Below, piece after piece: positions 4,700-48,132 of a stretch of 49,764 nt of DNA. Under the pieces are notes generated by a model. The model worked only from the letters and a program-made list of their open reading frames with translations, did no database searches and had not been told where the DNA came from. Numbering within the stretch: the stretch's first letter is position 1; each line of letters opens with the position of its first letter. Source of the stretch: Vicinamibacteria bacterium (lineage in GTDB: Bacteria > Acidobacteriota > Vicinamibacteria > Vicinamibacterales > JAENWD01); assembly GCA_016650245.1 (NCBI GenBank), contig JAENWD010000289.1:1-49764 (forward strand), written 5' to 3'. A program made the position numbers and the translations under genes.

Positions 4700-4700
4700 C

Positions 4701-4721
4701 GGACTTCGGACTTCGGATGGA
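4701..4721. repeat. Heptamer tandem array (GGACTTC GGACTTC GGATGGA), family B
   Basis: Read directly. It begins 2 nt after the TGA stop (4697-4699) of the receptor gene. Confidence 0.8.
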
Positions 4722-6616: not shown

Positions 6617-7606
6617 ATGGAATTTGCTGCCGTCGCCTTCCTCATCCTGGTCGCGCTGACCTTCGACTACATCAACGGCTTTCACGACGCCGCCAACTCG
6701 ATTGCCACCGTCGTCTCGACCAGAGTGCTGTCGCCTGGCAAGGCGGTGATCTGGGCGGCCTTCTTCAACTTCGCGGCCGCCTTTGGTTTCGGGACCGCCG
6801 TGGCCAAGACGGTGGGCTCGGGCATGATCGACATCCGCGAAGTCACCTTCCTGGTGATCTTCGCCGGCCTGTTTGCCGCGATCGTGTGGGATCTGATCAC
6901 CTGGTACTACGGGCTGCCCACCAGCTCGTCGCACGCGCTCATCGGCGGCTACGCCGGTGGCGCGGTGGCCAAGGCCGGCGTTGGGGCAATCATCGTGTCG
7001 GGCTGGACCAAGACCCTCATCTTCATCGTGTTGGCGCCGACGATTGGCCTGGTGCTCGGCTTTGGGCTCATGGTCGCGATCTTCTGGCTGTTCCGCGGCT
7101 TCGCGCCGTCGAAAGTGGACCGCTGGTTCCGGCGTCTCCAGCTGGTGTCGGCTGCGGCGTATAGCCTGGGTCACGGCGCCAACGACGCGCAGAAGACGAT
7201 GGGCATCATCGCCGGGGTGCTGCTGGCCGGCGGCTACCTGACGGTCTTCGAGATCCCCTTCTGGGTTGTGCTTGCGGCGCACGGTGCGATCGCGCTGGGC
7301 ACGCTGACCGGCGGCTGGCGCATCATTCACACGATGGGCTCGAAGATCACGCGGCTGCAGCCGGTGGGCGGCTTTGCCGCCGAGACCGCCGGCGCCGTGT
7401 CGCTGTTCCTTGCCACGAGCCTCGGCGTTCCGGTCAGCACCACCCACACCATCACCGGCGCCATCGTCGGGGTCGGCGCGACCAGGCGCCTGTCGGCCGT
7501 TCGCTGGGGCATCGCCGGCAGGATCGTGTGGGCGTGGATTCTGACGATTCCCGCCTCCTTCTTCATCGCCGCGGTCACGTATTGGACGCTGTCTCACGTT
7601 CTCTAG
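6617..7606 (+). CDS. pit: Inorganic phosphate transporter, PiT (PHO4) family
   Basis: 329-aa membrane protein carrying the PiT signature twice (FDYINGFHDAANSIATVVSTRVL and AAYSLGHGANDAQKTMGII). Confidence 0.9.
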   Translation: MEFAAVAFLILVALTFDYINGFHDAANSIATVVSTRVLSPGKAVIWAAFFNFAAAFGFGTAVAKTVGSGMIDIREVTFLVIFAGLFAAIVWDLITWYYGLPTSSSHALIGGYAGGAVAKAGVGAIIVSGWTKTLIFIVLAPTIGLVLGFGLMVAIFWLFRGFAPSKVDRWFRRLQLVSAAAYSLGHGANDAQKTMGIIAGVLLAGGYLTVFEIPFWVVLAAHGAIALGTLTGGWRIIHTMGSKITRLQPVGGFAAETAGAVSLFLATSLGVPVSTTHTITGAIVGVGATRRLSAVRWGIAGRIVWAWILTIPASFFIAAVTYWTLSHVL

Positions 7607-7610
7607 AACC

Positions 7611-7757
7611 GGTTCGGTCTGGTTGGGCCGGGTTGGGTCTGGTTCGGCCAGGTTGATCTCGGTTGGCCCGGGTTCCACGCCCTGGCTGCCGGGCAACGGG
7701 TTCAACCAGGCTCAACCGACATCAACCCGACCTGACCTGACCGAACCCGATCAACCC
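7611..7757. repeat. Inverted pair of about 10-nt tandem arrays (GGTTNGGNCN x7 at 7611-7680; complementary CAACCNGANN units at 7713-7757), family C
   Basis: Read directly. The left array is in exact 10-nt register (ggttcggtct ggttgggccg ggttgggtct ggttcggcca ggttgatctc ggttggcccg ggttccacgc). The reverse complement of the right array (gggttgatcgggttcggtcagg...) is the same family. The pair fills the pit/phoR convergent spacer, and the phoR stop (7751-7753) lies inside the last unit. Confidence 0.85.
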
Positions 7758-9516: not shown

Positions 9517-10215
9517 TTACGGCTCGGTCAGCTTGTAGCCGAACTGCTTCACGGTGATCAGGCCTTCGGCCAGCAGCGGCAGTTTCTCGCGCAGCCGTCG
9601 TACGTGCACGTCCACAGTGCGCGTGCCTCCGGTATACGAGTAGCCCCACACGTCCGAGAGCAGGAGATCGCGCGACAGCACGCGCCCCCGGTGCTCCAGC
9701 AGGTACTGCAGCAGCAGGAACTCCTTGGCCGTCAGCCGCACCTCGCCCCCGTCTAACGACACGGTATGCCGATCGACGTCGACGGTGAGCGGGCCGAAGC
9801 GCAGCAGGCCCGGCGGGCTGGCGCGGTGCGCGCGGCGCAGCAGCGCGCGCACGCGCGCGACCACTTCGTTTGGGCTGAATGGCTTGGTGATGTAGTCGTC
9901 AGCGCCCAACTCGAGCCCGACGATGCGGTCCGACTCCTCCGCGCGGGCAGTCAGCATGATGATCGGCACCGCCGCCGTGCGTGGATCACCGCGCAAGGTG
10001 CGGCACACCTCGAGGCCATCAAGGCCGGGCAACATCAGGTCGAGCAGCACCAGATCGGGCAGCGACCGGCGCACCGCGGGCAGCACCTCGGCGCCGGACC
10101 GCAGCAGGTCCACGGCAAACCCGGCCCGGCCCAGGCTATGGCTGAGCAGGTGTGCGATATCGTGGTCGTCTTCGACCACCAGAAGACGCGGTGGGGGGGC
10201 GGACGAAGCGGGCAT
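9517..10215 (-). CDS. phoB: PhoB-like OmpR-family response regulator
   Basis: The receiver domain (LLVVEDDHDI...DLVLLDLMLPGLDG) and MLTARAEESDRIVGLELGADDYITKPFSPNEVVARV are nearly colinear with E. coli PhoB as I recall it. The winged-helix C-terminus carries TRTVDVHVRRLREKL. ATG at 10215 is the likely start (track 10251). Confidence 0.8.
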   Translation of the reverse strand: MPASSAPPPRLLVVEDDHDIAHLLSHSLGRAGFAVDLLRSGAEVLPAVRRSLPDLVLLDLMLPGLDGLEVCRTLRGDPRTAAVPIIMLTARAEESDRIVGLELGADDYITKPFSPNEVVARVRALLRRAHRASPPGLLRFGPLTVDVDRHTVSLDGGEVRLTAKEFLLLQYLLEHRGRVLSRDLLLSDVWGYSYTGGTRTVDVHVRRLREKLPLLAEGLITVKQFGYKLTEP

Positions 10216-14501: not shown

Positions 14502-15823
14502 GCGTCGGCAGGCACGTCACGCCGGAGGAGAAACCACAACGCGACCACCGACAGCAGCACGCCGTTGATCGCGATGGCGGCAGGGGCGCCGATGCGGTCG
14601 ATGACCAGGCCGGTCACCAGACTGCCAAGCGGCATCCCGCCGCGGAACGCCATCATGTAGATGCTCATCACGCGGCCCCGCATCTGGTTGGGCGCGGTGA
14701 GCTGCACCAGCGACGTGAACAGGGAGAACACCACCATCAACGCCGCGCCGGCCACGGCCAGCAGCGCGTAGCTGATCCAGAGCGCGCGCGTGTAGGCAAA
14801 CGCGACCGTCAGCGCTCCAAACAGCACCTGCCCCGAGAGCGCCGTGACGCCCATGCGGCTGAAGCGTCCCATCCAGGCCACCGCCAGCGCGCCGGCCACC
14901 GCGCCGACGCCCGACCATGCCATCATCTGGCTGTACTGGCCGACGCCTCCGTGAAAGACGCTGCGCGCAAATACCGGAAGGAAGGTCAGCAGCGGCACGC
15001 CGAGAAACGTCGAGGCCAGCGCGAGTACGGTGAGCGTGCGAATCGCCGGCTCGTCACGCACGTACACCAGTCCGGTTCGCAGCTCGTCGAGCATGCGTCG
15101 CTGGCCCACCGGCGCGACGTGCGGCGTGTTCAGCGACAGCAGCGCCGCGATCACGACGAGAAACGACAGGCCGTTGACCGTGAAGCACGACGCGCTTCCC
15201 AGCGAGTGCAGCGTCACCCCGGCAAGCAGCGGTCCGATCACGCGCGCGATGTTGAACTGGATCGAGTTGAGCGCGACGGCGTTGGGCAGGTGGTCCTTGT
15301 GGACCAGCGACGGAATCAGCGACTGATACGCCGGGCCGCCAAAGGCCTGCGCGCACCCGGAGAGAAACGACAGCGCAAGCACGTGCCAGATCTGCACCCA
15401 GCCGCCGAAGACCAGGACCGCCAGCGCGAAAGCCGACGACATCTGCACGACCTGCGAGGCCAGCAGCAACACGCGGCGGTCGCGCCGATCGGCGACCACG
15501 CCGCCGATCAGCGTGAACAGCAGAATCGGCAGTTCGCCCAGAAACGCGTCGAGTGCGAGATAGCTGGCGGAGTTGGTCAACTCGAGGACCAGCCAGCTCT
15601 GCGCAACCTTCTGCATCCAGGTGCCGATACTCGACGTGCAGGCGCCCATCCACAGCACCCGGAAGTCGCGGTAGCCGAGCGCTGCGGCCAGCCGCTGCAC
15701 GATCGGCCCGCCAATGTTGGGGGTGACGGGGAGAGCAGGACCTGAGGCCGGCGCGGAATCCACGAGGAGCGATCTTATAAGAATTGCAGATTGCAGATTG
15801 CAGATTGACGATTGAGATGTCAC
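14498..15823 (-). CDS. MFS transporter (EntS/MFS_3-like)
   Basis: About 12 predicted TM helices with an N-terminal YRDFRVLWMGACTSSIGTWMQ motif. The 15823 (GTG) start reads through the heptamer array and leaves only 8 nt to the divergent gene. An internal GTG at 15700 (VQRLAAALGYRDF...) is a plausible true start. Confidence 0.75.
   Translation of the reverse strand: MTSQSSICNLQSAILIRSLLVDSAPASGPALPVTPNIGGPIVQRLAAALGYRDFRVLWMGACTSSIGTWMQKVAQSWLVLELTNSASYLALDAFLGELPILLFTLIGGVVADRRDRRVLLLASQVVQMSSAFALAVLVFGGWVQIWHVLALSFLSGCAQAFGGPAYQSLIPSLVHKDHLPNAVALNSIQFNIARVIGPLLAGVTLHSLGSASCFTVNGLSFLVVIAALLSLNTPHVAPVGQRRMLDELRTGLVYVRDEPAIRTLTVLALASTFLGVPLLTFLPVFARSVFHGGVGQYSQMMAWSGVGAVAGALAVAWMGRFSRMGVTALSGQVLFGALTVAFAYTRALWISYALLAVAGAALMVVFSLFTSLVQLTAPNQMRGRVMSIYMMAFRGGMPLGSLVTGLVIDRIGAPAAIAINGVLLSVVALWFLLRRDVPADA
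15783..15817. repeat. Heptamer tandem array (ATTGCAG x3, ATTGACG, ATTGAGA), family A in reverse orientation
   Basis: Read directly. It lies in the divergent region between the MFS gene and the heparinase-like gene (ATG 15832). Confidence 0.85.
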
Positions 15824-20345: not shown

Positions 20346-20373
20346 CTACGGACTACGGGCTACGGACTTCAGG
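20346..20373. repeat. Heptamer tandem array (CTACGGA CTACGGG CTACGGA CTTCAGG), family B
   Basis: Read directly. The recQ stop codon (20369-20371) lies inside the last unit. Confidence 0.8.
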
Positions 20374-22201
20374 AGGGCGGGTGCTGGGCGATCAGGTCGA
20401 GGATGGCTGGGCCGAAAGCGTCGGCTTTACGCTCGCCGATGCCGGTGATGCCGTGCAACTCGTTGATGTTCCTAGGTTTGACCCTGGCCAGCTCGCGCAG
20501 CGTCTGGTCGTGGAAGATGACATAGGGCGGAACGCCCCGGCCCCGCGCCAAGTCGAGTCGCAGCGCGCGCAGCTTCTCGAACAGCCCCTGGTCGACACCG
20601 GTCCACGACGCATCAGTGCGAGGGCCTGTCCGACGCTGCCGACTTTTCACCGGCCGAGGCTGGCGGAACAGCACGCACTCGGCCTGTCCGCGCAGCAACT
20701 CGGCGCCGGCCGCGCTGATCTGCAGCGTCGGGTACTGATCGCCTGTGCGGCTGAGGAAGCCGCCTTGCGTGAGCTGGTCGACGTAGCCGCGCAGTTCGGC
20801 GGCCGGCACGTCGCGCAGCAGGCCGAAGACGCTGAGGGTGTGGTGGCCGCGCGCGGTGACCTTTTCGGTTGACTCGCCGCGGAGCACCGCCACGACATGG
20901 CCAACACCCCATCGTTGTCCCGTGCGCGCGACGGCCGACAGGATCTTCTGCGCGAGTACCTGCGGCTGGTCGGCCCGCTCGAGTTCCTCCAGACACCAAT
21001 CGCAGGCGCCGCAGGGGCCCTGGGCCAGGTCCTGCCCGAAGTAGCCCACCAGCGCGCGATGACGGCAACTGGTGGCGGCGGCATAGTGCTCCATGTCGCG
21101 CAGCAGGGTCCGGGCGCTGTCGGTCCACTGGCCATCGGATTCGAGCAGGCTGCGCCAGCGCGCGAAGTCGGCGGGCGAGGTGACCAGCGCGCACTCGGCC
21201 GGCAGCCCGTCGCGCCCGGCGCGGCCGGCTTCCTGCTGATACTGCTCGAGCGATTGCGGGGCGCCGGCGTGGACGACAAAGCGCACGTCAGATCGATCGA
21301 TGCCCATGCCGAAGGCGACGGTGGCCACCATCACGTCGATCTCCTCGTTGAGGAAGGCGTCCTGATTCCGGTGCCGCGTCGTGTCGTCGAGCCCCGCGTG
21401 GTAGGGCAGCGCGCGGATGCCGTCGGCGGCCAGCGCCGCCGCCAACTCGTCCACTTCCCGCCGCGACAGGCAGTAGATGATGCCGGCCTCGCCCTCGTGA
21501 CGGCGGAGGATCGTCTGCAGTTGCTGCCGGAACTGGACACGCGGCAGCACGCGATAGGCGAGATTGGGGCGGTCGAACGAGCCGATGTGCACGACCGGCT
21601 GCACCAGCCCCAACTGTTCGCAGATGTCGCGCTGCACGCGCGGCGTGGCCGTGGCCGTGTAGGCGTGCAGCGAGGTGCCCGCAAATGCCTCACGCAACGC
21701 GCCCAACTGCCGGTATTCCGGGCGGAAGTCGTGGCCCCACTGGCTGATGCAGTGCGCTTCGTCGATGGCAACATAGGCCACCCCGCGCGTACTCATCAGC
21801 GCGCGGAACCCGTCGGCCGTGTCGCCAACGGCTCGCTCGGGCGCGACGTAGAGCAGCCGGCAGGTGCCGGCGCGCAGCAGGTCGAGCGAAGCACGGCGCT
21901 GGTCCGACGACTGCCCGCTGTGCAGGCACGCGGCCGCGACGCCTTGTGCGACCAGGCCATCGACTTGATCCTTCATCAAGGCGATCAGGGGAGAGATGAC
22001 AATCGCGATTGACGATTGCCGATTGACGATTGCCGATTGATCGACGAGTGCCGGCAACTGGAAGCACAGCGACTTGCCGCCGCCGGTGGGCAGCACGACG
22101 AGCGAATCGCGCCGCGCCAGGACAGCGTCGATCGCCTCGCGCTGCAGCGGGCGAAACGCGGTGTAGCCCCAGTACTGGTGGAGAAGATCGTCGATCGTCA
22201 A
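20369..22201 (-). CDS. recQ: ATP-dependent DNA helicase RecQ
   Basis: 610 aa with a TTG start. Motifs present: FRPLQREAI, PTGGGKSLCFQLPAL, SPLIALMKDQV, DEAHCISQWGHDFRPEY, a zinc-binding CRHxxL...CGxCDxC module, and a C-terminal HRDC (VIFHDQTLRELARVKPRNINELHGITGIG). Confidence 0.93.
   Translation of the reverse strand: MTIDDLLHQYWGYTAFRPLQREAIDAVLARRDSLVVLPTGGGKSLCFQLPALVDQSAIVNRQSSIAIVISPLIALMKDQVDGLVAQGVAAACLHSGQSSDQRRASLDLLRAGTCRLLYVAPERAVGDTADGFRALMSTRGVAYVAIDEAHCISQWGHDFRPEYRQLGALREAFAGTSLHAYTATATPRVQRDICEQLGLVQPVVHIGSFDRPNLAYRVLPRVQFRQQLQTILRRHEGEAGIIYCLSRREVDELAAALAADGIRALPYHAGLDDTTRHRNQDAFLNEEIDVMVATVAFGMGIDRSDVRFVVHAGAPQSLEQYQQEAGRAGRDGLPAECALVTSPADFARWRSLLESDGQWTDSARTLLRDMEHYAAATSCRHRALVGYFGQDLAQGPCGACDWCLEELERADQPQVLAQKILSAVARTGQRWGVGHVVAVLRGESTEKVTARGHHTLSVFGLLRDVPAAELRGYVDQLTQGGFLSRTGDQYPTLQISAAGAELLRGQAECVLFRQPRPVKSRQRRTGPRTDASWTGVDQGLFEKLRALRLDLARGRGVPPYVIFHDQTLRELARVKPRNINELHGITGIGERKADAFGPAILDLIAQHPPS
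22001..22042. repeat. Six-unit heptamer array inside recQ (AATCGCG ATTGACG ATTGCCG ATTGACG ATTGCCG ATTGATC), family A
   Basis: Read directly. 42 nt equals 14 codons, so it stays in frame. On the coding strand it encodes [14 protein letters not shown], between the Walker A motif and motif Ia. Confidence 0.85.
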
Positions 22202-24302: not shown

Positions 24303-25555
24303 TCACGCCGGAAGGCGCTTCGGCAGCAACGCCACGGCCACGGCGCCCACGGCCGCCAGCCCGATGAGCACCGAAAACCCGCCCGCGTAGCTGCCGGTTG
24401 CATCGCGGATGCCGGCCACCAGCATCGGCGCGGTCGCCTCGGCGATGCCGTCGGCTGTGAGCACGATGCCCATCAGTCGGCCCAGCATCTTCACCCCGAA
24501 CAGCTCGGCAGCCATCAGCGGGATGATCATGTAGTCGCCGCCCAGCCCGATGCCAAACAGCAGCGCAAAGGCGTAGCGCGCCGCCGGCAGGTCGGCCAGA
24601 AACAGCAGCGGGATCGTGCACGCCACGATGGAGTAGATGAGCAGCATCACGTACTTCTTCGCAAACCGATCGGCGAGATAGCCCATCGCGATGCGGCCGA
24701 TCAGGCTGCCCACCAGCACCAGCGACGCGATCTGCGCCACCTCGCCCTGCGCCAGCTTCACGTCCAGGCTCAAATACAGCTTGAGGTTCTGCATCGTCCC
24801 CCCGACGGCGCCGATGGAGCACATCGAGCCGACCATCAGCAGGTAGAACGCGGGGGACTTCAGTGCTGACGCAAGAGACGGCAGCGCGCCAGCGGAAATT
24901 GACGATTGACGATTGACGATTGACGACTGGGCGGTTGCAGGGTGCAGGTTGTCGGTTAACGGTTGTTGGTTCGCTCCGCGTGCGGCGACATCCTCGGGCT
25001 TCTCCCTGACGAACCACGCCATGGGAAACGCGATGACGACCATCAGCACGCCCAGTATCTGCAACGCGGCCTGCCAGCCCAAGCGCTGGGTCAGCGCGTG
25101 GGCCAGCAGCGGGACGATGGCGCCGCCGACACCGATGCCGAGATAGGCAAAGCCCATCGCCTTGCCGCGATTTGTGTCGAACCATCGCGACAGCAGCACC
25201 TGATTGGGCAGCGGGCCGCCGCAGACGTAGCCCAGGGCGTTGAACACGTAGAACAGATAGAAGAACGCCAGCGTCGAGACCGTGCCGAGTCCCACCAGCG
25301 CGCCGCCGGCCATCACGATGCCGGCAAGCATGAGCCGCCGCGGCCCGAACCGATCGATGAACCAGCCGGCCAGAAACCCGAACAGCGGGCCAATCAGCAG
25401 CTTGCTGTACGCGTTCCCCGAGGTGACCTGCTGGCGCGTCCACCCCAGATCCCGGACGAAGAAGTCGTAGAAGAACGGCAGGCCGTAGAGCGCGAACCCC
25501 ACGATCGAGAACAACGACAGAAACGCGGTAGCGGCGACGTGTGTCTGTGGGCGGC

Positions 25556-25559
<4 letters not shown>
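24303..25559 (-). CDS. MFS transporter (oxalate/formate antiporter-like)
   Basis: 418 aa in a 6+6 TM organisation with a long central loop. The GTG start overlaps the stop of the upstream OYE gene (GTGA). Confidence 0.75.
24898..24974. repeat. Two adjacent heptamer arrays inside the MFS gene: (ATTGACG)x4 at 24898-24925 and (GGTTNNN)x6 at 24933-24974
   Basis: Read directly. On the coding strand they encode ...[29 protein letters not shown]..., which is the central loop between the two 6-TM halves. Confidence 0.85.
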
Positions 25560-30223: not shown

Positions 30224-30834
30224 TGTACATCACCCGACGGAACGCACTCAAGATCATCGGCGCCACGCCAGTGGCGGCTGGCATCGGCCTCGCCGAGGCA
30301 ACCGCCGAACCCGAGGCGCATCAGCACGGCACCCCGGTCGCAGGGAGAGGCGCCGCCGGCAGGAAGGGTGCCTACAAGCCGAAGTTCTTCACCCCGCACG
30401 AGTGGGCGACCGTCGCGCTGCTCGCCAACATCGTCATCCCCAAGGACGAGAAGTCCGGCAGTGCGACCGACGCGGGTGTGCCCGAGTTCATCGACTTCAT
30501 GATGACGGACCGGCCCGAAGGGCAGGTGCCGATGCGCGGCGGCCTGCGGTGGCTGGATGCCGAAAGCCACTCGCGGTTCGGCAAGTCGTTCCGCGAGGTC
30601 ACCGACGCGCAGCGCACCGCCCTGGTTGACGACATCGCCTATCCACGGAAGGCCACGCCGGAGTTCAGCCACGGCGTCGCCTTCTTCTCGCGATTCCGCG
30701 ACGCGGTGGCGACCGGCTTCTTCACGAGCAGGATGGGGATCCAGGACCTGCAGTACATGGGCAACGTGCCCAGTCCCGGCTGGGATGGGTGCCCCGACAA
30801 CTGCTACACGCATCTCGGGGTGACCAAGGCATGA
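30223..30834 (+). CDS. Gluconate 2-dehydrogenase subunit 3 family protein (Tat signal)
   Basis: It has a twin-arginine signal ([20 protein letters not shown]) and the family-typical FFTPHEWATVALLANIVIPKDE. It is paired with the GMC flavoprotein. Confidence 0.8.
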   Translation: MYITRRNALKIIGATPVAAGIGLAEATAEPEAHQHGTPVAGRGAAGRKGAYKPKFFTPHEWATVALLANIVIPKDEKSGSATDAGVPEFIDFMMTDRPEGQVPMRGGLRWLDAESHSRFGKSFREVTDAQRTALVDDIAYPRKATPEFSHGVAFFSRFRDAVATGFFTSRMGIQDLQYMGNVPSPGWDGCPDNCYTHLGVTKA

Positions 30835-32189
30835 CAGAGAATCGGGTTGATCGGGTTGGTCGGGTTGATCGGGTTGGCCGGGTTCATCAGGTTGGTCGGG
30901 TTGGCCTGCTGTTGGTCGCCGCCATACTCTGGTCGACGCCCGTCGCGGCACAGGCGACGTACGTGCCTGCACCAGAGAACCTGAAGGCGCGCGAGTGGTT
31001 TCAGGACGCCAAGTTCGGGCTCTTCGTCCACTGGGGCGTCTACAGCGTCCTGGGCGACGGCGAGTGGGTGATGAACAACCAGAAGATCCAAGTGGCCGAC
31101 TACGAGAAGCTGCCGGCGTTTTTCAACCCCGAGCAGTTCAACGCCGCCGAGTGGGTGGCGATGGTGAAGGCCGCGGGAATGAAATACATCACCATCACCT
31201 CGAAGCACCACGACGGCTTCGCGATGTTCGACTCGAAGGTCTCCAGTTGGGACATCGTCGATCGGACGCAGTACCGGAAGGACGTGCTCAAGGCGCTGGC
31301 CGAGGAATGCCGCAAGCAGGGCATCAAGCTGTTCTTCTACTACTCGCAGCTCGACTGGCACCACCCGGACTACTATCCGCGTGGCCGCACCGGCAACGAC
31401 GCGGGCCGGCCTGACGCGGGCAACTGGGACACGTACATCGACTACATGAACGCCCAGCTCACAGAGTTGCTCACCAACTACGGTGAGATTGGCGGCATCT
31501 GGTTCGACGGCTGGTGGGATCGGCCCGACGCCAAGTGGCGGCTGGAGGAGACCTACGCGCTCATCCATCGCCTGCAGCCCCAGGCGCTGGTCGGCGCCAA
31601 CCACCACAAGAAGCCGTTTGACGGCGAAGACTTCCAGATGTTCGAGAAGGACCTGCCGGGGCACAATACGGCCGGCTTCAACGAGGACTCGCAGATCGGT
31701 CACCTGCCGCTCGAGATGTGCGACACCATCAACGGCGCCTGGGGTTTCAACCTCCAGGATCGCCGGCACAAGAGCACGCGGGACCTGATCCACCTGCTCG
31801 TCAAAGGCGCCGGCTACAACGCCAACTTCCTCCTCAACGTCGGGCCCATGCCCAACGGGAAGATCCAGGCCGAGCACAGCGCGCGGTTGAAGGAAGTGGG
31901 CGAGTGGCTGGCCGTGCACGGCGAGTCGATCTACGGCTCGCGCGGCGGGCCGGTGACCCCGCGGCCCTGGGGCGTGACGACGAAAAAGGGCGACACGGTC
32001 TACGTGCACGTGCTCAACTGGCAGGATCCGAACCTGCTCGTGCCGTCGGTGGGTGGCCCGGTGAGAAGCGCCCGCTTCGTGAAGACCGGCGCGAAGGCCG
32101 ACGTGAGAAACGTCGCCGAGGGCGTGATCCTCACGATCCCGCAGACGGCTGTGGACCCGTACGACACCGTGATCGCTTTGGAGATGTAG
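30831..32189 (+). CDS. Alpha-L-fucosidase (GH29)
   Basis: GH29 motifs: FGLFVHWGVYS, YITITSKHHDGFAMFDS, GGIWFDGWW. The ATG at 30831 overlaps the upstream stop (ATGA). The n-region of the signal peptide is encoded by the 9-nt array. Confidence 0.85.
   Translation: MTENRVDRVGRVDRVGRVHQVGRVGLLLVAAILWSTPVAAQATYVPAPENLKAREWFQDAKFGLFVHWGVYSVLGDGEWVMNNQKIQVADYEKLPAFFNPEQFNAAEWVAMVKAAGMKYITITSKHHDGFAMFDSKVSSWDIVDRTQYRKDVLKALAEECRKQGIKLFFYYSQLDWHHPDYYPRGRTGNDAGRPDAGNWDTYIDYMNAQLTELLTNYGEIGGIWFDGWWDRPDAKWRLEETYALIHRLQPQALVGANHHKKPFDGEDFQMFEKDLPGHNTAGFNEDSQIGHLPLEMCDTINGAWGFNLQDRRHKSTRDLIHLLVKGAGYNANFLLNVGPMPNGKIQAEHSARLKEVGEWLAVHGESIYGSRGGPVTPRPWGVTTKKGDTVYVHVLNWQDPNLLVPSVGGPVRSARFVKTGAKADVRNVAEGVILTIPQTAVDPYDTVIALEM
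30843..30905. repeat. Seven-unit 9-nt tandem array (CGGGTTGAT CGGGTTGGT CGGGTTGAT CGGGTTGGC CGGGTTCAT CAGGTTGGT CGGGTTGGC), family C
   Basis: Read directly. It is in frame within the fucosidase 5' end and encodes RVD RVG RVD RVG RVH QVG RVG. Confidence 0.9.
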
Positions 32190-32222: not shown

Positions 32223-33089
32223 ATGGCACTCTCACGACGTGATGCGCTCAGGACCGCCGGGGCCGTGGCCGCCGGCGCGGTGTTTGCCGGCTCGGAGACC
32301 TCTGCACAGGAGAAGGCCGTCAAGCTGGGCAGGTTGAAGCAGTCGGTGTGCCGCTGGTGCTATCAGCGCATCCCGCTCGAGGACTTCCTCAAGTCGGTCG
32401 CCGATCTCGGCCTGCCGGCCGTGGACTTGCTGCAGCCCGAGGAGTTCGCGATCGCCGCCAAGTATGGGCTCACGGTGTCCACTGGTTACCCGGGCAAAGG
32501 CGGCGGTACCATCCCGGACGGCCTGAACAACCCGGCGCTGCACGACCAGATCTACGAGACCTTCAAGACGGGGATCCCGTTCGCCAAGGCGGCGAAGGTG
32601 CCGAACCTGATCACCTTCTTCGGCAACCGCAAGGGCATGCCCGACGACCAGGCGATCGCCAATTGCGCGGCGGTGCTCAACCGCATCAAGCCCATCGCCG
32701 AAGAGCACGGTGTCACCGTGGTCGTCGAGCTGCTCAACAGCAAGGTGAACCACAAGGACTACCAGGGCGACAAGACGCCGTTTGGCGTCGAAGTGATGAC
32801 GCGGGTGGCCTCGCCCAACGTCAAGCTGCTGTACGACATCTACCACATGCAGATCATGGAGGGCGACATCATCCGCACGATCAAGGACAACAAGGACTGG
32901 ATCGCGCACTACCACACGGGCGGCGTCCCCGGGCGTAACGAGCTCGATCCGACGCAGGAACTGCAGTGGCCCGCCATCGTCAAGGCGATTCACGAGACCG
33001 GCTACACCGGCTACTTCGCGCACGAGTTCATCCCGGTGCGCGAACCGATGGCATCACTGCGCGAAGCCGTGGTGCTCTGCGACGTGTAA
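32223..33089 (+). CDS. Sugar phosphate isomerase/epimerase (xylose isomerase-like TIM barrel, hydroxypyruvate isomerase-like) with Tat signal
   Basis: It has the Tat motif MALSRRDALRTAGAVAAGAV. TIM-barrel family features are present (VVVELLNSKVNHKDY, KLLYDIYHMQIMEGD, YTGYFAHEF). Confidence 0.75.
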   Translation: MALSRRDALRTAGAVAAGAVFAGSETSAQEKAVKLGRLKQSVCRWCYQRIPLEDFLKSVADLGLPAVDLLQPEEFAIAAKYGLTVSTGYPGKGGGTIPDGLNNPALHDQIYETFKTGIPFAKAAKVPNLITFFGNRKGMPDDQAIANCAAVLNRIKPIAEEHGVTVVVELLNSKVNHKDYQGDKTPFGVEVMTRVASPNVKLLYDIYHMQIMEGDIIRTIKDNKDWIAHYHTGGVPGRNELDPTQELQWPAIVKAIHETGYTGYFAHEFIPVREPMASLREAVVLCDV

Positions 33090-33114
33090 TCTGCAATCGT
33101 CAATCTGCAATGAC
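33087..33114. repeat. Heptamer array TAATCTG CAATCGT CAATCTG CAATGAC, family A
   Basis: Read directly. The first unit holds the upstream TAA stop (33087-33089) and the last unit holds the downstream ATG (33110-33112). Confidence 0.85.
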
Positions 33115-35437: not shown

Positions 35438-35460
35438 GTGAGTCCCGCCCCATCCGACCC

Positions 35461-35530
35461 AATCTGCGCAATCTGCGTAATCTGCGGGTGATTACTCCGC
35501 GTAATCCTCTATAATCTGCGTAATTTCCCC
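35461..35530. repeat. 9-nt array AATCTGCGC AATCTGCGT AATCTGCGG plus degenerate (G)TAATC units; contains TATAAT at 35510-35515
   Basis: Read directly, upstream of the VWA gene (ATG 35546, GAGGT at 35536-35540). Confidence 0.8.
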
Positions 35531-35545: not shown

Positions 35546-37648
35546 ATGCGTCAGCACGTCGCGTTGCTCTGCGTCATTGCGCTCACCACCGCGCTGAGCG
35601 CTCAGGACTACAGGGTCGAGGTACGGCTGGTTGAATCCGAGGTCCGCGTGACCGACCGCGCGGGCCGCCCCATCACCGATCTGACCCGTGCCGACTTCAC
35701 ACTGACCGAAAACGGCGTCCCCCACGACGTGGCCACCGTGCAGTTCGTGCCACAGGCCGAGAACGACCGCGGAACGTGGGAAGCGCCCGACGGCATGCCG
35801 GGCGAGCCGGTGGCGGCGCCCATCGGAAGCCCCACCTGGGTTTACGTCGCAGCGGAAGTCGGTACCACCGACACCAAGCGGACCATAGAGGCCCTCCGCG
35901 CCTTCGTGCTCGGCAATCTCCGGCCAGGGTTCCACGTGTCGATTGGCAACCGCCCCTTCACCGACGCCCGCACCGATCTCATCGCGACGATCAACAAACT
36001 CGAGCGCGGGCCGCTGGGCGGCAACGGCCTGTCAGGGTTGGTGGATCTGTCGCGTCCGATGGCCGACGACGCCGCGATCGAGCGGGCGAATGCGGCCAAC
36101 ATCCAGCGCCAGAACGACGGTGTCGCGCCGCTGATGGGATTCATGGTCCGTCCGCAGCAGGCGCCCACCAACGCCGCGCTGGCTGCGCCGGTGACCGAGG
36201 GCCTGGTCGACCGGCAGTTGCCCATTTACGGCGAGGTGGCCCTGAACCAGTACTTCGGCCTGGTCGAACGCCTGGCGCCGCTGCCGGGCAAGAAGGCCAT
36301 CGTGTTGATGCGTCCGGGGCTGCGTCTGGAACAGGACAACGCCGGGCTGTTCCGCGATCTGGCCAGTTTTGCGGTGCGCCGGCGTGTCAGTTTCTACACC
36401 GTCGACTCGCGCGGCCTCAACCCGCAGACGCCTGTGGACGAGCGCGGCATAGCTCCCACGATCGACGGCCGCCGCCGCCGCGCCGAGCCGGACCTGGTCG
36501 GCCAGTCCGAGTTGCGCGCGCTGGCGCGTGAAGGGCTGGAGAACTTGGCGCGTGAGACCGGGGGCTACGCGATCATCGGCAGCAACCGCCTGGCCGACGT
36601 CTTCGACCGCGTGGTCCGCGACGCATCCGGGTATTACGTCGTGAGTTACTACCCGGTCGACTTGCGGTCGGCCGGCCGCTTCCGCGCGCTGAAGTTCAAC
36701 GTCACCAGGTTGGGCGCGCGCGTGCAGGCCGCCACCCGGGGTTATTACGAGCCGCGCACGACGTCGATGTTCGCGAAAGACGACCGCGGGCTGGCGCTGC
36801 GCCAGGCGATGCAGCGCGCCGAGGTTCCCGTCGATCTGCCCGTCGCCGCGTCTGTCGGGATGTTCGCCAGCGACGAGGGGTTCCCCGTGCTCGTGCTCAG
36901 TGCGGGCGTGCCCGCCAGCCAGTTGCAGCCCTCCGACTTGAAGGCGCCCCAACTGGTGGCGACCGCGATCCTGCGCGTGACCGACGCCACAAACGGGCGC
37001 CTGCCGCTCTATTTCGAGCGGCGCCTCGAGGCGCCGCTCGACGTCGCGCGCTGGGGCCAGGTGCGCGGGGATCGCACCGCCTTTTTGTCGATGAGCGATC
37101 TGCTGCCGCTGCTGCCGGGCGAGTACGACTGGCGCATCGTGTTTCGCGATGAGCGGTCGGGCCGGATGGGCGGCGTTGGCGGGCGCGTGCTGCTCAAGGA
37201 CTTCCGCGGCCCGTCCACGTCGAGCTCGCTGTTGCTGACGCGCCAGGTGGCGCGACGCGACGGCAATGCCGTTGACACCGATCGGCAGCCACTCGATGCC
37301 GGCGCCGTGCGCTTCGTGCCCCAGCCCTCCATGGTCTTCGCGCAGGGCGAGACCGTGCACCTGCTCTACATCGTGTACAACGCGACGCCCGAGGACCTCG
37401 ACGCCGTCAAGCAGGGCATGCATCTCGCCCTCTTGCGCAATGGCCGGGCCGTGGGCGATGTGCAGGCCGCCGGTGAGCCCGTGGTGGATGCCAAGCGCGG
37501 CCAGATTCAGTTCACCGGCGCCATCCGTACTGGCTCGCTCGAGCCGGGGACCTACACGGTCGTCGGCATGCTGCCAAACTTCGAGACCCGATCGCCCAAG
37601 CAGGTAGAGCAGCGCTTCCTGTTGATCGCGCCGACCGCCGGTTCGTAA
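35546..37648 (+). CDS. VWA-domain protein of the 'VWFA-related acidobacterial domain' type with long C-terminal extension
   Basis: A signal peptide is followed by YRVEVRLVESEVRVTDRAGRPITDLTRADFTLTENGVPHDVATVQFV, the hallmark N-terminus of this family. VWA-like core motifs follow (KKAIVLMRPG, SFYTVDSRG). Confidence 0.7.
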   Translation: MRQHVALLCVIALTTALSAQDYRVEVRLVESEVRVTDRAGRPITDLTRADFTLTENGVPHDVATVQFVPQAENDRGTWEAPDGMPGEPVAAPIGSPTWVYVAAEVGTTDTKRTIEALRAFVLGNLRPGFHVSIGNRPFTDARTDLIATINKLERGPLGGNGLSGLVDLSRPMADDAAIERANAANIQRQNDGVAPLMGFMVRPQQAPTNAALAAPVTEGLVDRQLPIYGEVALNQYFGLVERLAPLPGKKAIVLMRPGLRLEQDNAGLFRDLASFAVRRRVSFYTVDSRGLNPQTPVDERGIAPTIDGRRRRAEPDLVGQSELRALAREGLENLARETGGYAIIGSNRLADVFDRVVRDASGYYVVSYYPVDLRSAGRFRALKFNVTRLGARVQAATRGYYEPRTTSMFAKDDRGLALRQAMQRAEVPVDLPVAASVGMFASDEGFPVLVLSAGVPASQLQPSDLKAPQLVATAILRVTDATNGRLPLYFERRLEAPLDVARWGQVRGDRTAFLSMSDLLPLLPGEYDWRIVFRDERSGRMGGVGGRVLLKDFRGPSTSSSLLLTRQVARRDGNAVDTDRQPLDAGAVRFVPQPSMVFAQGETVHLLYIVYNATPEDLDAVKQGMHLALLRNGRAVGDVQAAGEPVVDAKRGQIQFTGAIRTGSLEPGTYTVVGMLPNFETRSPKQVEQRFLLIAPTAGS

Positions 37649-37674
37649 TCGTCAATCTGCAATTCTGCAATATA
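37646..37674. repeat. Heptamer array TAATCGT CAATCTG CAATTCTG CAATATA, family A
   Basis: Read directly. The first unit holds the TAA stop of the VWA gene. Confidence 0.8.
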
Positions 37675-39023: not shown

Positions 39024-39073
39024 GTGCTCTCGGGTGCTCTCGGGTGCTCTCAGGTGCTCTCAGGTGCTAAGGG
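39024..39073. repeat. 10-nt tandem array GTGCTCTCGG x2, GTGCTCTCAG x2, GTGCTAAGGG, family E
   Basis: Read directly. It starts immediately after the TAA at 39021-39023 and ends 4 nt before the ATG at 39078. Confidence 0.9.
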
Positions 39074-41247: not shown

Positions 41248-41375
41248 AAGTGCAAAATGCAAAATGCGAAATGCCAAGTGGCGAAACAGGGATGCATCCC
41301 AACGTTTCGCATGTTGCACGCTGCACCCCGTACTTTTCACTTCGCACTTCGCACTTTGCATTTTGCACTTCGCAT
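41248..41375. repeat. Inverted pair of heptamer arrays (AAGTGCA AAATGCA AAATGCG AAATGCC AAGTGGC at 41248-41282; TTTTCAC TTCGCAC TTCGCAC TTTGCAT TTTGCAC TTCGCAT at 41334-41375), family D
   Basis: Read directly. GTGCAAAATGCAAA (41250-41263) is exactly complementary to TTTGCATTTTGCAC (41355-41368). The palindrome GGGATGCATCCC at 41289-41300 lies in the loop. The pair fills a convergent spacer. Confidence 0.85.
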
Positions 41376-41971
41376 TACGTCTTGTGTTCCGGGTGCGTGC
41401 ACCCCTTGTACTCCAGGAAGAACATGTTGCCGTCGTCGCCCATCTCTTCGTGCATCCCGACTTCGGACGTGTAGTAGCCGGTGATGGTCAGCGACTTGAT
41501 CGCGCTGAAGAAGTCCACGCCAACCTGCTCGGTGGACGAGGGTGCCTTGTTCGTGCTGATCGCCGTGAGCAGGGCGGCCTGGTGAGCCGCGCTCGCCCTG
41601 GCAAACGGGGCACCGGCATCGCGCTGGCTCTGGGTGTCCAGCCACCCCAGACCGTCAACGAACTTCTGACGATCGGCGGCCGAGGCATCGGCGATGACCG
41701 CGTCGATGAACCGATTCACGTTGGCCTTGGTGGCGCCGGCCGTGTCGGTCTGCGGGATGATCAGCTCCGCGAGTGTGATGACCGTCTCGTTCTGCGCCGG
41801 TGTGAGCGCCTTTGGCGCCCAGGCGGCCGCCTGGGCGGCCGATGCCTGGTAGTGCGCCGCGTGCTGCCCGGCGGCCGACACGAGCGTCTCAACCCAGAGC
41901 GGTGCAGTCACCGCCGCCGCGCCGCCGACGGCGATCTTCCGGAGAGCGTCGCGACGAGTGAAGTCAGCCAT
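41375..41971 (-). CDS. Gluconate 2-dehydrogenase subunit 3 family protein (Tat signal), no adjacent flavoprotein partner
   Basis: It starts at ATG 41971 with the Tat signal MADFTRRDALRKIAVGGAAAVTAPLW. The family-like region LTPAQNETVITLAELIIPQTD parallels the 30223 paralog. Confidence 0.7.
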   Translation of the reverse strand: MADFTRRDALRKIAVGGAAAVTAPLWVETLVSAAGQHAAHYQASAAQAAAWAPKALTPAQNETVITLAELIIPQTDTAGATKANVNRFIDAVIADASAADRQKFVDGLGWLDTQSQRDAGAPFARASAAHQAALLTAISTNKAPSSTEQVGVDFFSAIKSLTITGYYTSEVGMHEEMGDDGNMFFLEYKGCTHPEHKT

Positions 41972-42019: not shown

Positions 42020-42054
42020 CAATCGTCAACCGTCAATCTGCAATCGTCAATTGT
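42020..42054. repeat. Heptamer array CAATCGT CAACCGT CAATCTG CAATCGT CAATTGT, family A
   Basis: Read directly. It lies between two minus-strand genes, and the stop of the upstream gene (42054-42056) starts at the last nt of the last unit. Confidence 0.85.
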
Positions 42055-43016
42055 CACGCCCAATATGCCTTCCCGGCCGGGGCGCTGATGACGACGTTCT
42101 TCAGCACGCCGATCGCCTTCTTCAGCCCTTCGTCGCCAGACATCAGCGAGTCCTCGTGCTCGATGCTGATGACGTGATCGTAGCCGACCATGCGCAGGTT
42201 GCTCACGATCTCGCGCCAGACTGATTCGCTGTTGCCGTAGCCCACCGTGCGGAAGACCCACGAGCGGTTCAGCTCGTCGGTGTACTTCTTCACGTCGAGC
42301 ACGCCGTTCTTCGCGGTGTTGGCCGGGTCGATCTTGCAGTCCTTGGCGTGGACGTGGAAGATGCGGTCGCCCAGCGTCCGGATGGCCGTGGGCACGTCCA
42401 CCTGCTGCCAGAACATGTGGCTGGGGTCGAAGTTGCAGCCGATGGTGCCCTTGGCCACATCAGCCAGCCTCAGCATGGTCTCCGGGTTGTAGGCGACGAA
42501 GTTCGGGTGCATCTCGATGGCAACCCGGACGCCGTTGCGCCGAGCGAACTTCGCCGTCTCCTTCCAGTAGGGGAGCACCCGCTCCTTCCACTGCCACTCG
42601 AGCATCTGGGGGAACTCGGGAGGCCACGACGAGGTGATCCAGTTTGGCTGGGTTGCCTTCGGGTCGCCGCCCGGGCAGCCCGAGAAGGTGATGACCTGCT
42701 GGACATCGAGCTTCGAGGCCAGCTCCACGGTCTGCCGGAACACCGTGTCGTGCGCTCTGGCGACCTTCTTGTCCGGGTGAATCGGGTTGCCGTGACACGA
42801 CAGGGCGCTGATCATGAGCCCGCGGCTCGAGATAGCGGCCCTGAACGCCTTGAGCTTGCTCTCGCTCTTGAGCAGCTCCGCCGGCTTGCAGTGCCCGTCG
42901 CCTGGGTAGGCGCCGGTGCCGATCTCGACGGCTTCAAGTCCAAGCTCCTTCACGTAGTCGAGCGTTTCCTCGAAGGGCTTGTTGCCGAACAGGACGGTGA
43001 AGACTCCGATTTTCAT
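42054..43016 (-). CDS. Sugar phosphate isomerase/epimerase (xylose isomerase-like TIM barrel)
   Basis: 320 aa: MKIGVFTVLFGNKPFEETLDYVKELGLEAVEIG..., VAIEMHPNF, HVHAKD. Confidence 0.8.
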   Translation of the reverse strand: MKIGVFTVLFGNKPFEETLDYVKELGLEAVEIGTGAYPGDGHCKPAELLKSESKLKAFRAAISSRGLMISALSCHGNPIHPDKKVARAHDTVFRQTVELASKLDVQQVITFSGCPGGDPKATQPNWITSSWPPEFPQMLEWQWKERVLPYWKETAKFARRNGVRVAIEMHPNFVAYNPETMLRLADVAKGTIGCNFDPSHMFWQQVDVPTAIRTLGDRIFHVHAKDCKIDPANTAKNGVLDVKKYTDELNRSWVFRTVGYGNSESVWREIVSNLRMVGYDHVISIEHEDSLMSGDEGLKKAIGVLKNVVISAPAGKAYWA

Positions 43017-46620: not shown

Positions 46621-46655
46621 GACTGCGGACTTCGGACTACGGACTACGGAACTGA
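46621..46655. repeat. Heptamer array GACTGCG GACTTCG GACTACG GACTACG GAACTGA, family B
   Basis: Read directly. It fills the spacer between the TAG at 46617-46619 and the ATG at 46658. Confidence 0.85.
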
Positions 46656-48030: not shown

Positions 48031-48132
48031 GCTACAGGCTGCAGGCCCGGCGTCTGGAGTCCGAAGCCTGAAGCCCGCGTGTGATCGGCTGGGGAGCCTA
48101 ATCTCCATCGGCAATCTGCAATCGGCAATTCT
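48031..48132. repeat. Cluster of mini heptamer arrays: GCTACAG GCTGCAG (48031-48044); TCTGGAG TCCGAAG CCTGAAG (48053-48073, family B inverted); TAATCTC..CAATCTG CAATCGG CAATTCT (48099-48132, family A)
   Basis: Read directly. It lies in the 5' region of the nucleoside hydrolase gene. Confidence 0.7.

Follow-up and report, generated by a model that had tools for sequence, protein, structure and literature searches.

Intragenic tetranucleotide tracts of Haemophilus and Neisseria are contingency loci driven by simple sequence repeats (SSRs). Their unit is not a multiple of three nucleotides (nt), copy number alters expression, and copy number changes by slipped-strand mispairing. Here we describe an array of heptanucleotide units inside recQ, on a 49,764-nt stretch of DNA from a Vicinamibacteria bacterium (contig JAENWD010000289.1, assembly GCA_016650245.1), and the whole stretch is called the window below. 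An earlier note on this DNA regarded the array as a possible phase-variable switch. The array shares with SSR contingency loci a unit that is not a multiple of three and slipped-strand mispairing as the putative process. However, contingency loci have long homogeneous tracts with both ON and OFF alleles among isolates, whereas the recQ array is short and interrupted and only in-frame alleles of it were found.

Heptameric repeats are over-represented in large, high-GC bacterial genomes, and dispersed families are described in Xanthomonas, Nostoc and Beggiatoaceae (PMC4692102, PMC4679880). Rehm et al. (2015) described the heptameric repeats GGGAATC of Xanthomonas and GGGGAYT of Nostoc, together with the STRR sequences of cyanobacteria (PMC4692102). 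MacGregor (2015) described TAACTGA direct repeats in marine Beggiatoaceae, some Cyanobacteria and Bacteroidetes, and a role in regulator binding or as a translational or transcriptional pause was proposed for them (PMC4679880). A phase-variable heptanucleotide tract is also known; it is the (ATCTTTC)n repeat of the hmwA promoter in H. influenzae, which was studied with 13-24 units (PMC8262952). In the literature we found no report of heptamer repeats in Acidobacteria or Vicinamibacter, and none of a phase-variable tract or a repeat-encoded loop in recQ.

The units of the recQ array belong to a family, CAATCNN, that resembles the Xanthomonas, Nostoc and STRR repeats. In all of them a 7-nt unit is present in two to a few tens of copies, the arrays are scattered genome-wide and enriched in spacers near gene ends with a minority inside genes, and slippage is presumed. 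Length and sequence also vary between close relatives at conserved positions. CAATCNN differs from these families in several points. It is AT-rich and has no G-tracts, so that G-quadruplex formation is not expected; its host is a high-GC acidobacterium; and the recQ copy is translated as part of a housekeeping helicase, within its catalytic core. The TAACTGA arrays are similar, too. They are mostly located just upstream of start codons, and one orientation contains stops in all frames, as for CAATCNN. Their intragenic copies have the stop-free orientation, occupy permissive positions and encode a fixed cyclic heptapeptide, which is LSVISYQ for TAACTGA and QSSIVNR for CAATCNN. The unit itself is different, however, and intragenic TAACTGA copies are mostly found at protein termini or in hypothetical proteins, whereas the CAATCNN copy lies between helicase motifs I and Ia. 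In addition, turnover of the recQ array is documented across many relatives. Overall, CAATCNN has each of the tested features of the known dispersed heptamer families; its location is unusual, and there is no evidence of a new mechanism. We conclude, with a probability of roughly 0.78, that the recQ array is one copy of a lineage-wide dispersed CAATCNN family, and that it sits in a fast-changing, tolerated loop in which slippage is filtered by selection. This reading draws on the anatomy of the array, its position in a loop, the dispersal of the family, the logic of its orientation, the hypervariability of the loop and survivors that are exclusively in frame.

The heptamer array and its place in RecQ

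The array is located at 22001-22042 on the minus strand, which is the coding strand of recQ, and encodes D54-I67. On the plus strand its six 7-nt units are aatcgcg, attgacg, attgccg, attgacg, attgccg and attgatc, and the two terminal ones are degenerate. On the coding strand the units read GATCAAT, CGGCAAT, CGTCAAT, CGGCAAT, CGTCAAT and CGCGATT. ATTGACG and ATTGCCG alternate in the array and identical neighbours are absent. The sequence ATTGACGATTGCCG is present twice, error-free, at 22008-22035. Tandem Repeats Finder reported 22006-22040 either with period 14 (2.5 copies, 100% match) or with period 7 (5 copies, 85% match), and this stretch is the perfect core with a 14-nt period. Thus, both the six in-frame 7-nt units and the perfect 14-nt duplication of the earlier note were found again in the sequence and in the translation of the open reading frame (ORF), and the peptide that the note gives for this region agrees exactly with the translation. 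The G+C content is about 50% in the array and 66.8% in the whole window. We counted five strong period-7 arrays in the window and none in thirty dinucleotide-preserving shuffles, and the same count was zero in the real sequence for periods 5, 6 and 8. The Tandem Repeats Finder listing contains 12 period-7 arrays in the window. Because period 7 is in excess over both the shuffles and the other periods, the recQ repeat is real and not a product of chance.

The host gene extends from 20369 to 22201 on the minus strand (610 aa, TTG start, stop codon included) and was assigned from its ORF and from Pfam and PDB matches. Its product contains DEAD, Helicase_C, RecQ_Zn_bind, RQC and HRDC domains, all above the Pfam thresholds (PF00270, PF00271, PF16124, PF09382 and PF00570). 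Residues 6-516 were aligned by phmmer to the solved RecQ cores 4TMU (E=4.5e-136) and 1OYW (E=3.3e-131), and GGGKS, SPLIALMKDQ and DEAH, which are motifs I, Ia and II, align with 1OYW. Judged from these matches, the recQ product is a complete RecQ family DNA helicase of superfamily 2 (SF2). Motif I (Walker A, PTGGGKS, residues 38-44) is encoded at 22070-22090 and was located by translation, alignment and invariant columns. Motif Ia (SPLIALMKDQ, residues 70-79) is encoded at 21965-21994 and was located by translation, alignment, conserved columns and the structural model. Both are on the minus strand. The E. coli RecQ core (1OYW, 1OYY) and Cronobacter RecQ (4TMU) have the same domains and motifs as the window RecQ, at 44-47% identity. 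However, these proteins and most RecQ helicases have 9 residues from PAL to SPL, whereas the window RecQ has 17 and its relatives have up to 54. A single 8-residue gap in 1OYW (E. coli) and 4TMU falls exactly at the array in the phmmer alignment. Translation and alignment thus support two statements made at the outset from the sequence, namely that the array lies between Walker A and motif Ia and that it adds about 8 residues compared with E. coli RecQ.

We also examined an AlphaFold2 model of the recQ product, which was built from 69 homologues and has a mean predicted local distance difference test score (pLDDT) of 89.7 and a predicted template modelling score (pTM) of 0.85. In Foldseek, RecQ cores were the top hits of the model, which matched 1OYW with a TM of 0.78 on the target and also matched 4TMU. 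The model shows a helix at 43-52, coil at 53-64 and a strand at 65-69, which is directly followed by motif Ia (SPL...). Codons I65-I67 of this strand are within the terminal degenerate unit of the array. The block 51-60 has a pLDDT of 70, which is the minimum of the helicase core. In the model, the residues encoded by the array link the helix that follows Walker A to the strand that precedes motif Ia. The earlier note had named a structural model as a check on whether the insert is a loop, and the repeat insert does fall in the predicted coil 53-64. In RecA-like folds, the N-terminal end of the strand lies opposite the ATP- and DNA-binding motifs. The repeat loop of RecQ is predicted to be on the side away from the catalytic motifs.

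The dispersed CAATCNN family and the length of the RecQ loop

Eight CAATCNN arrays are present in the 50-kb window, with the unit variants CAATCGT, CAATCGG and CAATCTG. Two of them are intragenic, in recQ and in a gene for an MFS transporter; the other six are at gene boundaries, where they occupy the few bases that separate a stop codon from the following start codon or stand at a gene start. The MFS gene (24303-25559, minus strand, assigned from its ORF and Pfam) carries (CGTCAAT)x4 on its coding strand at 24898-24926, in the central loop of the transporter. An array on the minus strand at 15783-15818 (ATTGCAG x4, ATTGACG and ATTGAGA on the plus strand) is located at the junction of two divergent genes. 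The remaining five are on the plus strand. The array at 33087-33111 (TAATCTG, CAATCGT, CAATCTG, CAATG) spans a stop codon and the next start codon, and that at 35460-35486, in a short spacer between genes, is a variant whose unit has 9 nt (CAATCTGCG x3). The array at 37647-37671 (TAATCGT, CAATCTG, CAATTCTG, CAATATA) is at a gene junction, that at 42020-42056 (CAATCGT, CAACCGT, CAATCTG, CAATCGT, CAATTGT) is in the spacer between two minus-strand genes, and that at 48107-48129 (CATCGG, CAATCTG, CAATCGG, CAATTC) is near a gene start. Besides CAATCNN, an array of a different family, CTACGGA x3.3, was found at 20346-20368, immediately 3' of the recQ stop codon. This family (GGACTWC) is also present at 4700-4717 and 46621-46650, and the same heptamer family occupies the spacer downstream of recQ in a relative, L209.

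In both intragenic arrays the coding strand carries CAATCGN; the sample is small, with two sites that recur across relatives. The opposite orientation, (ATTGACG)n, reads ATT GAC GAT TGA, and TGA hits every frame because 7 and 3 have no common factor. In contrast, (CAATCGT)n is open in all three frames and each frame encodes the cyclic heptapeptide QSSIVNR. Therefore, the orientation and peptide shared by the recQ and MFS arrays are explained by stops in the opposite orientation and by the same unit being read in the same orientation. It had been claimed that the two arrays encode the same peptide, QSSIVNR. This holds for MFS, whereas RecQ has QSAIVNR; the stretch IVNRQSSI is common to both.

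The family was also found in DNA loci of relatives (L numbers), where it occupies spacers between genes as well as the recQ and MFS sites. Five relatives have CAATCNN arrays at the orthologous position of the MFS central loop. At this level of divergence the MFS array keeps about four units, with a perfect x4 in L083 and CAGTCGT plus three CAATCGT in the window. L085 and L086, which are 99.3% identical over 16.8 kb, differ by four insertions or deletions (indels), and all four are in repeats. One affects a 9-nt unit in a spacer, another a 21-nt unit, in frame, in the MFS central loop, and the other two are in 1-nt runs. Copy number and unit sequence vary among relatives at the RecQ loop, the MFS loop and the spacer downstream of recQ. 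An excess over chance, many loci of which most are at boundaries, variation in relatives and a stop-free orientation inside genes were thus all observed, as is expected of a dispersed heptamer family. A protein search with (QSSIVNR)x6 in 5.8 billion sequences returned only 10 short hypothetical ORFs, short arrays being below significance in such a search.

Comparison of RecQ homologues (P numbers) revealed that the loop is hypervariable. We took the residues between PAL and SPL as the RecQ segment and compared the 120 best homologues, which are 61-92% identical. One homologue at 73% identity is named Vicinamibacterales, and the array-bearing lineage probably belongs to the Vicinamibacterales (Acidobacteriota). 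The segment has 9 residues in canonical RecQ and 12-26 residues without repeats in a wider clade; in the closest clade it has 10-54 residues, which are clearly encoded by repeats. In the 90%-identity cluster that contains the window protein, the segment is 17, 20, 31, 31, 31 and 38 residues long, and in another cluster it ranges over 10-54. Unrelated RecQ lineages have non-repeat insertions at the same site, with up to 25 residues from PAL to SPL. The earlier note had proposed to check whether the insertion is lineage-specific and variable in length, and the orthologue alignment, in which the segment extends from 9 to 54 residues, shows that it is.

Length differs even between nearly identical proteins, when identity is computed outside the PAL-SPL segment. 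P0001 and P0003 are 99.8% identical and differ by 11 residues in length. P0009 and P0152 are 95.6% identical and exactly 7 residues apart (IDQSSIALVI versus a 17-residue segment), and P0016 and P0158 are 97.5% identical with a difference of 21 residues, the loop of P0016 being 54 residues long. Among pairs at least 95% identical, 7 residues, which correspond to three units, are the commonest non-zero difference across several independent pairs; a class with an 18-residue difference was set aside because it stems from one protein, P0164. This indicates that turnover of RecQ loop length is much faster than sequence change in the rest of the protein, and that the survivors are frame-preserving steps.

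The same is seen in the DNA. From Q48 to the ATG of M76 there are 81 nt in the window and also in L089, which has a perfect (CAATCGG)x4. The distance is 75 nt in L090 with 8-nt units, 60 nt in L083 with about two units, 123 nt in L209 with units of the GCACCCN family, and 192 nt in L208, in which ~20 units have a higher-order 21-nt period encoding PSTANHQ. In L210, the stretch measured was that from Q48 to S70, with 96 nt. Each of these distances is divisible by 3. Two unit families occur in the RecQ loop, CAATCNN encoding QSSIVNR-like peptides and GCACCCN encoding APSTQHP-like peptides. In L081 (9610-9680), P0031 and P0012, GCACCCN and then CAATCNN stand side by side in one loop. This suggests that these loops consist of two adjacent arrays which expand and contract independently; the window keeps only the second one (CAATCNN). 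L208, a relative at 79% identity, has a further compound array of ~120 nt (ATTGCAG x3, then a 14-nt period, GATTGGGAGTTGGCA) at 9780-9900, and it fills the spacer immediately upstream of recQ.

Reading frame, apparent OFF alleles and rival explanations

The array has the arrangement of a phase-variable locus in that its unit of 7 nt is not a multiple of 3 and lies in a coding region (codons 54-67). When changes in the array were simulated, the reading frame ended at a stop after 69 residues with -7 nt, after 172 with +7 nt, after 165 with -14 nt and after 76 with +14 nt. Changes of -21 and +21 nt left the frame intact. Thus, the prediction that a change by one unit frameshifts recQ and that only three-unit steps keep the frame was correct. 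Because in-frame length changes accumulate so fast, out-of-frame slips must arise as well, presumably at an appreciable rate, and one-unit slips that give a null, truncated RecQ probably arise as a by-product.

Nevertheless, a whole-unit out-of-frame allele of recQ was found neither among about 150 homologues nor in the inspected DNA loci. The full-length RecQ homologues are all in frame, which is partly so by construction. Gene calls that start at or after M76 were taken as candidate OFF alleles; the inspected set excludes P0150, P0154 and P0156. P0018 (L082) was rejected, as a run of N is located exactly at the array (L082 9889-9988). P0075 (L081) is on a noisy long-read contig with many split genes, and the contig of P0134 (L212) begins inside the array. 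P0089 and P0092 (L084-L088) are in frame and merely have no canonical start codon. P0153 (L210) is in frame, too, the gene caller having been misled by a 1-nt error where the upstream gene ends. P0137 (L211) was rejected as a unit-slip allele, since it shows two 1-nt gaps at the 3' end of the array against L212, an Illumina contig 97.5% identical to it. In L084 (~9775), L085-L088 (~9785) and L210 (~2700-2745), recQ has no in-frame ATG, GTG or TTG after the stop codon of the upstream ATP-grasp gene. Because no canonical start is in frame, gene callers start recQ at M76 (MKDQ...), and this mimics a truncation. The true start of recQ in these loci could be a non-canonical codon or involve translational coupling, or a 1-nt error could be present. 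In L081, L208, L210 and L211 (ENA ERZ250394xx-395xx, contig_N), scattered 1-nt indels split FeoB, MFS and the end of the ATP-grasp gene, and frame information from these long contigs is unreliable.

A frame-blind scan of metagenome contigs with a general flank-gap-flank pattern gave 117 matches, and the 82 true ones are all in frame; the collection contains few array-bearing relatives, so this is a weak test. None of the 34 matches whose length is 2 mod 3 represents a frameshift allele. For 32, the left anchor was placed upstream in another frame, for example at the ATG CTT CCA of MLPTGGGKS in canonical RecQ, and the remaining two are intron-bearing eukaryotic genes. One further match (1 mod 3) is a 1-nt indel in a repeat-free RecQ. 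L170 and L172 contain a 98-nt AT-rich insertion (GTAAG...TTTAG) between the PAL and SPL codons, which resembles a spliceosomal intron of a eukaryotic gene. A pattern of two CAATCG units beside the Walker A flank, which matches the window and would match L089, had no match in the metagenome contigs. Because a pattern that matches the window finds nothing there, the collection lacks these close relatives. In a whole-RecQ scan of genome contigs, the best match among the matches listed was only 60% identical, too distant to inform on close relatives. Irregular units of 5, 6 and 8 nt were also considered as a sign of compensated frameshifts, and this was rejected because intergenic arrays have irregular units, too.

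These results bear on the idea that the array is a contingency locus. In this view, RecQ would be turned off and back on by slippage of one or two units, subpopulations would come to differ in recombination and in the stability of repeats, and the arrangement would be maintained because switching is useful. The unit length and the early position of the tract in recQ fit this idea, as a 7- or 14-nt change ends the protein after 69-172 residues, and a tract whose length turnover far exceeds sequence change elsewhere must produce out-of-frame slips. Heptanucleotide repeats can indeed drive phase variation in H. influenzae, but the known switch has 13-24 units (PMC8262952), whereas the recQ tract is short and interrupted with only 2.5 perfect 14-mers. 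It falls short of the length and homogeneity needed for high-frequency slippage, and interruptions lower slippage, as in mono- and dinucleotide runs (PMC7015867). Moreover, the apparent OFF calls are artefacts and about 150 homologues and the inspected loci are free of whole-unit out-of-frame alleles, while the same family occupies intergenic spacers and the MFS loop without a sign of switching, the MFS array keeping its ~4 units. Since the tract is short and interrupted, only in-frame alleles are seen and a passive origin suffices, the phase-variable switch of the earlier note was not supported, and we regard it as quite unlikely. Very unlikely is its self-referential form, in which slippage would reversibly knock out RecQ in some cells and, as RecQ affects recombination and repeat stability, transiently alter the mutability of the lineage's heptamer arrays, including the recQ array itself. 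Another explanation is diversifying selection on a functional loop, for example to escape a phage- or plasmid-encoded RecQ inhibitor or to tune a partner, with the repeat generating the diversity. Extreme variation of length and sequence between near-identical proteins, the presence of GCACCCN and CAATCNN in the same loop, sometimes side by side, and the persistence of the loop across the whole clade are consistent with it. However, similar variation is found outside RecQ, both in non-coding spacers and in the cytoplasmic loop of a transporter unrelated to it, the peptides are simply dictated by the repeat units, and the RecQ loop is predicted to point away from the catalytic motifs. We also know of no partner or inhibitor, and this counts against such selection, which we consider unlikely.

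A role of the repeat as DNA or RNA, in which it would be a regulator binding site or a translational or transcriptional pause element and its coding effect would be incidental, is suggested by the position of most CAATCNN arrays within a few bases of start or stop codons, like the TAACTGA and GGGAATC repeats (PMC4679880, PMC4692102). The recQ copy, however, is 160 nt inside the gene and away from any boundary, its unit is replaced by a different family in close relatives, and no structure or binding motif was identified; this role is highly improbable for the recQ array. The chance that the array is an assembly or sequencing artefact is practically negligible. Repeats are error-prone, long-read contigs of several relatives contain 1-nt indels and short-read assemblies break at this site, but arrays of the family are present at the same codon position and in frame in independent JGI, ENA and NCBI assemblies, and in P0152 a segment of equal length, 17 residues, contains a perfect unit.

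We therefore favour a passive, tolerated repeat loop. CAATCNN arrays, which are mostly found in short intergenic spacers, would grow, shrink and homogenise through replication slippage. Persistence of an array inside a gene would need a stop-free orientation, a total length that keeps the frame and a position at which the peptide is permissive. In RecQ, the permissive place would be the connection from the helix after Walker A to the strand leading into motif Ia, and RecQ is predicted to stay functional, presumably with its helicase activity retained, with a polar loop encoded by the repeat. Between strains, the loop changes length quickly, in steps of 21, 33, 42 or 63 nt that preserve the frame. 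Alleles made by one-unit slips, with a truncated and inactive RecQ, would be removed by purifying selection and not be retained as an OFF state; no sign of their persistence was seen. Because the same family fills intergenic spacers and another permissive protein loop, such a passive origin is sufficient. Several points weigh against this conclusion. Neutrality of the loop is an assumption. Because intact frames are favoured in protein databases, the failure to find OFF alleles is weaker evidence than it appears; informative and reliable DNA loci number only about seven, and the three M76-start gene calls named above are outside the inspected set. The stretch of L211 is 154 nt (1 mod 3), although on a long-read contig. 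Finally, short-read assemblies break at the recQ array, with an N gap in L082 and contigs of L212 and P0077 that start inside or just after it. These breaks may be due to the dispersed repeat family, or to mixed array lengths within a sample.

Other repeats and the meaning of the RecQ loop

The window contains other repeats. A further heptamer family forms an inverted pair at 41251 and 41332; the two arrays run in opposite directions (GTGCAAAATGCAAAATGCGAAATGC... and ...CACTTCGCACTTCGCACTTTGCATTTTGCA) on either side of ~45 nt in a region between genes (41251-41376). As RNA, this region is predicted to form one long hairpin of -62.5 kcal/mol, with a shuffle average of -35.5 and z = -8.3. At 30831-30904, a 9/18-nt repeat (TCGGGTTGG x7) is in frame at the extreme N-terminus of an ORF (MTENRVDRVGRVDRVGRVHQVGRVG...), and it just precedes a hydrophobic stretch resembling a signal peptide. 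A 10-nt tandem repeat at 39024-39068 (GTGCTCTCAG x4.5, 97% match) is located exactly at the junction of two same-strand genes. Another tandem repeat, with a 20-nt unit (GGTTGGTCTGGTTGGGCCG x3.2), lies at 7611-7674, directly 3' of the stop codon of a gene ending at 7606.

If the switch reading were true, recQ would represent a contingency locus of a new kind, in a bacterium that lives free in soil. On the reading of a tolerated loop, the RecQ motif I-Ia connection, whose canonical length is 9 residues, absorbs 1 to 45 extra repeat-encoded residues, and this tolerance is useful for RecQ engineering or tagging. The arrays break short-read assemblies and mislead gene callers, as in the recQ start at M76, and they would suit strain typing. 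Furthermore, few bacteria are known to have a dispersed heptanucleotide family, and a soil acidobacterial lineage now joins them. The recQ array of this lineage is, on the same reading, a clean natural example of selection filtering slippage, in which only the stop-free orientation and frame-preserving steps survive.

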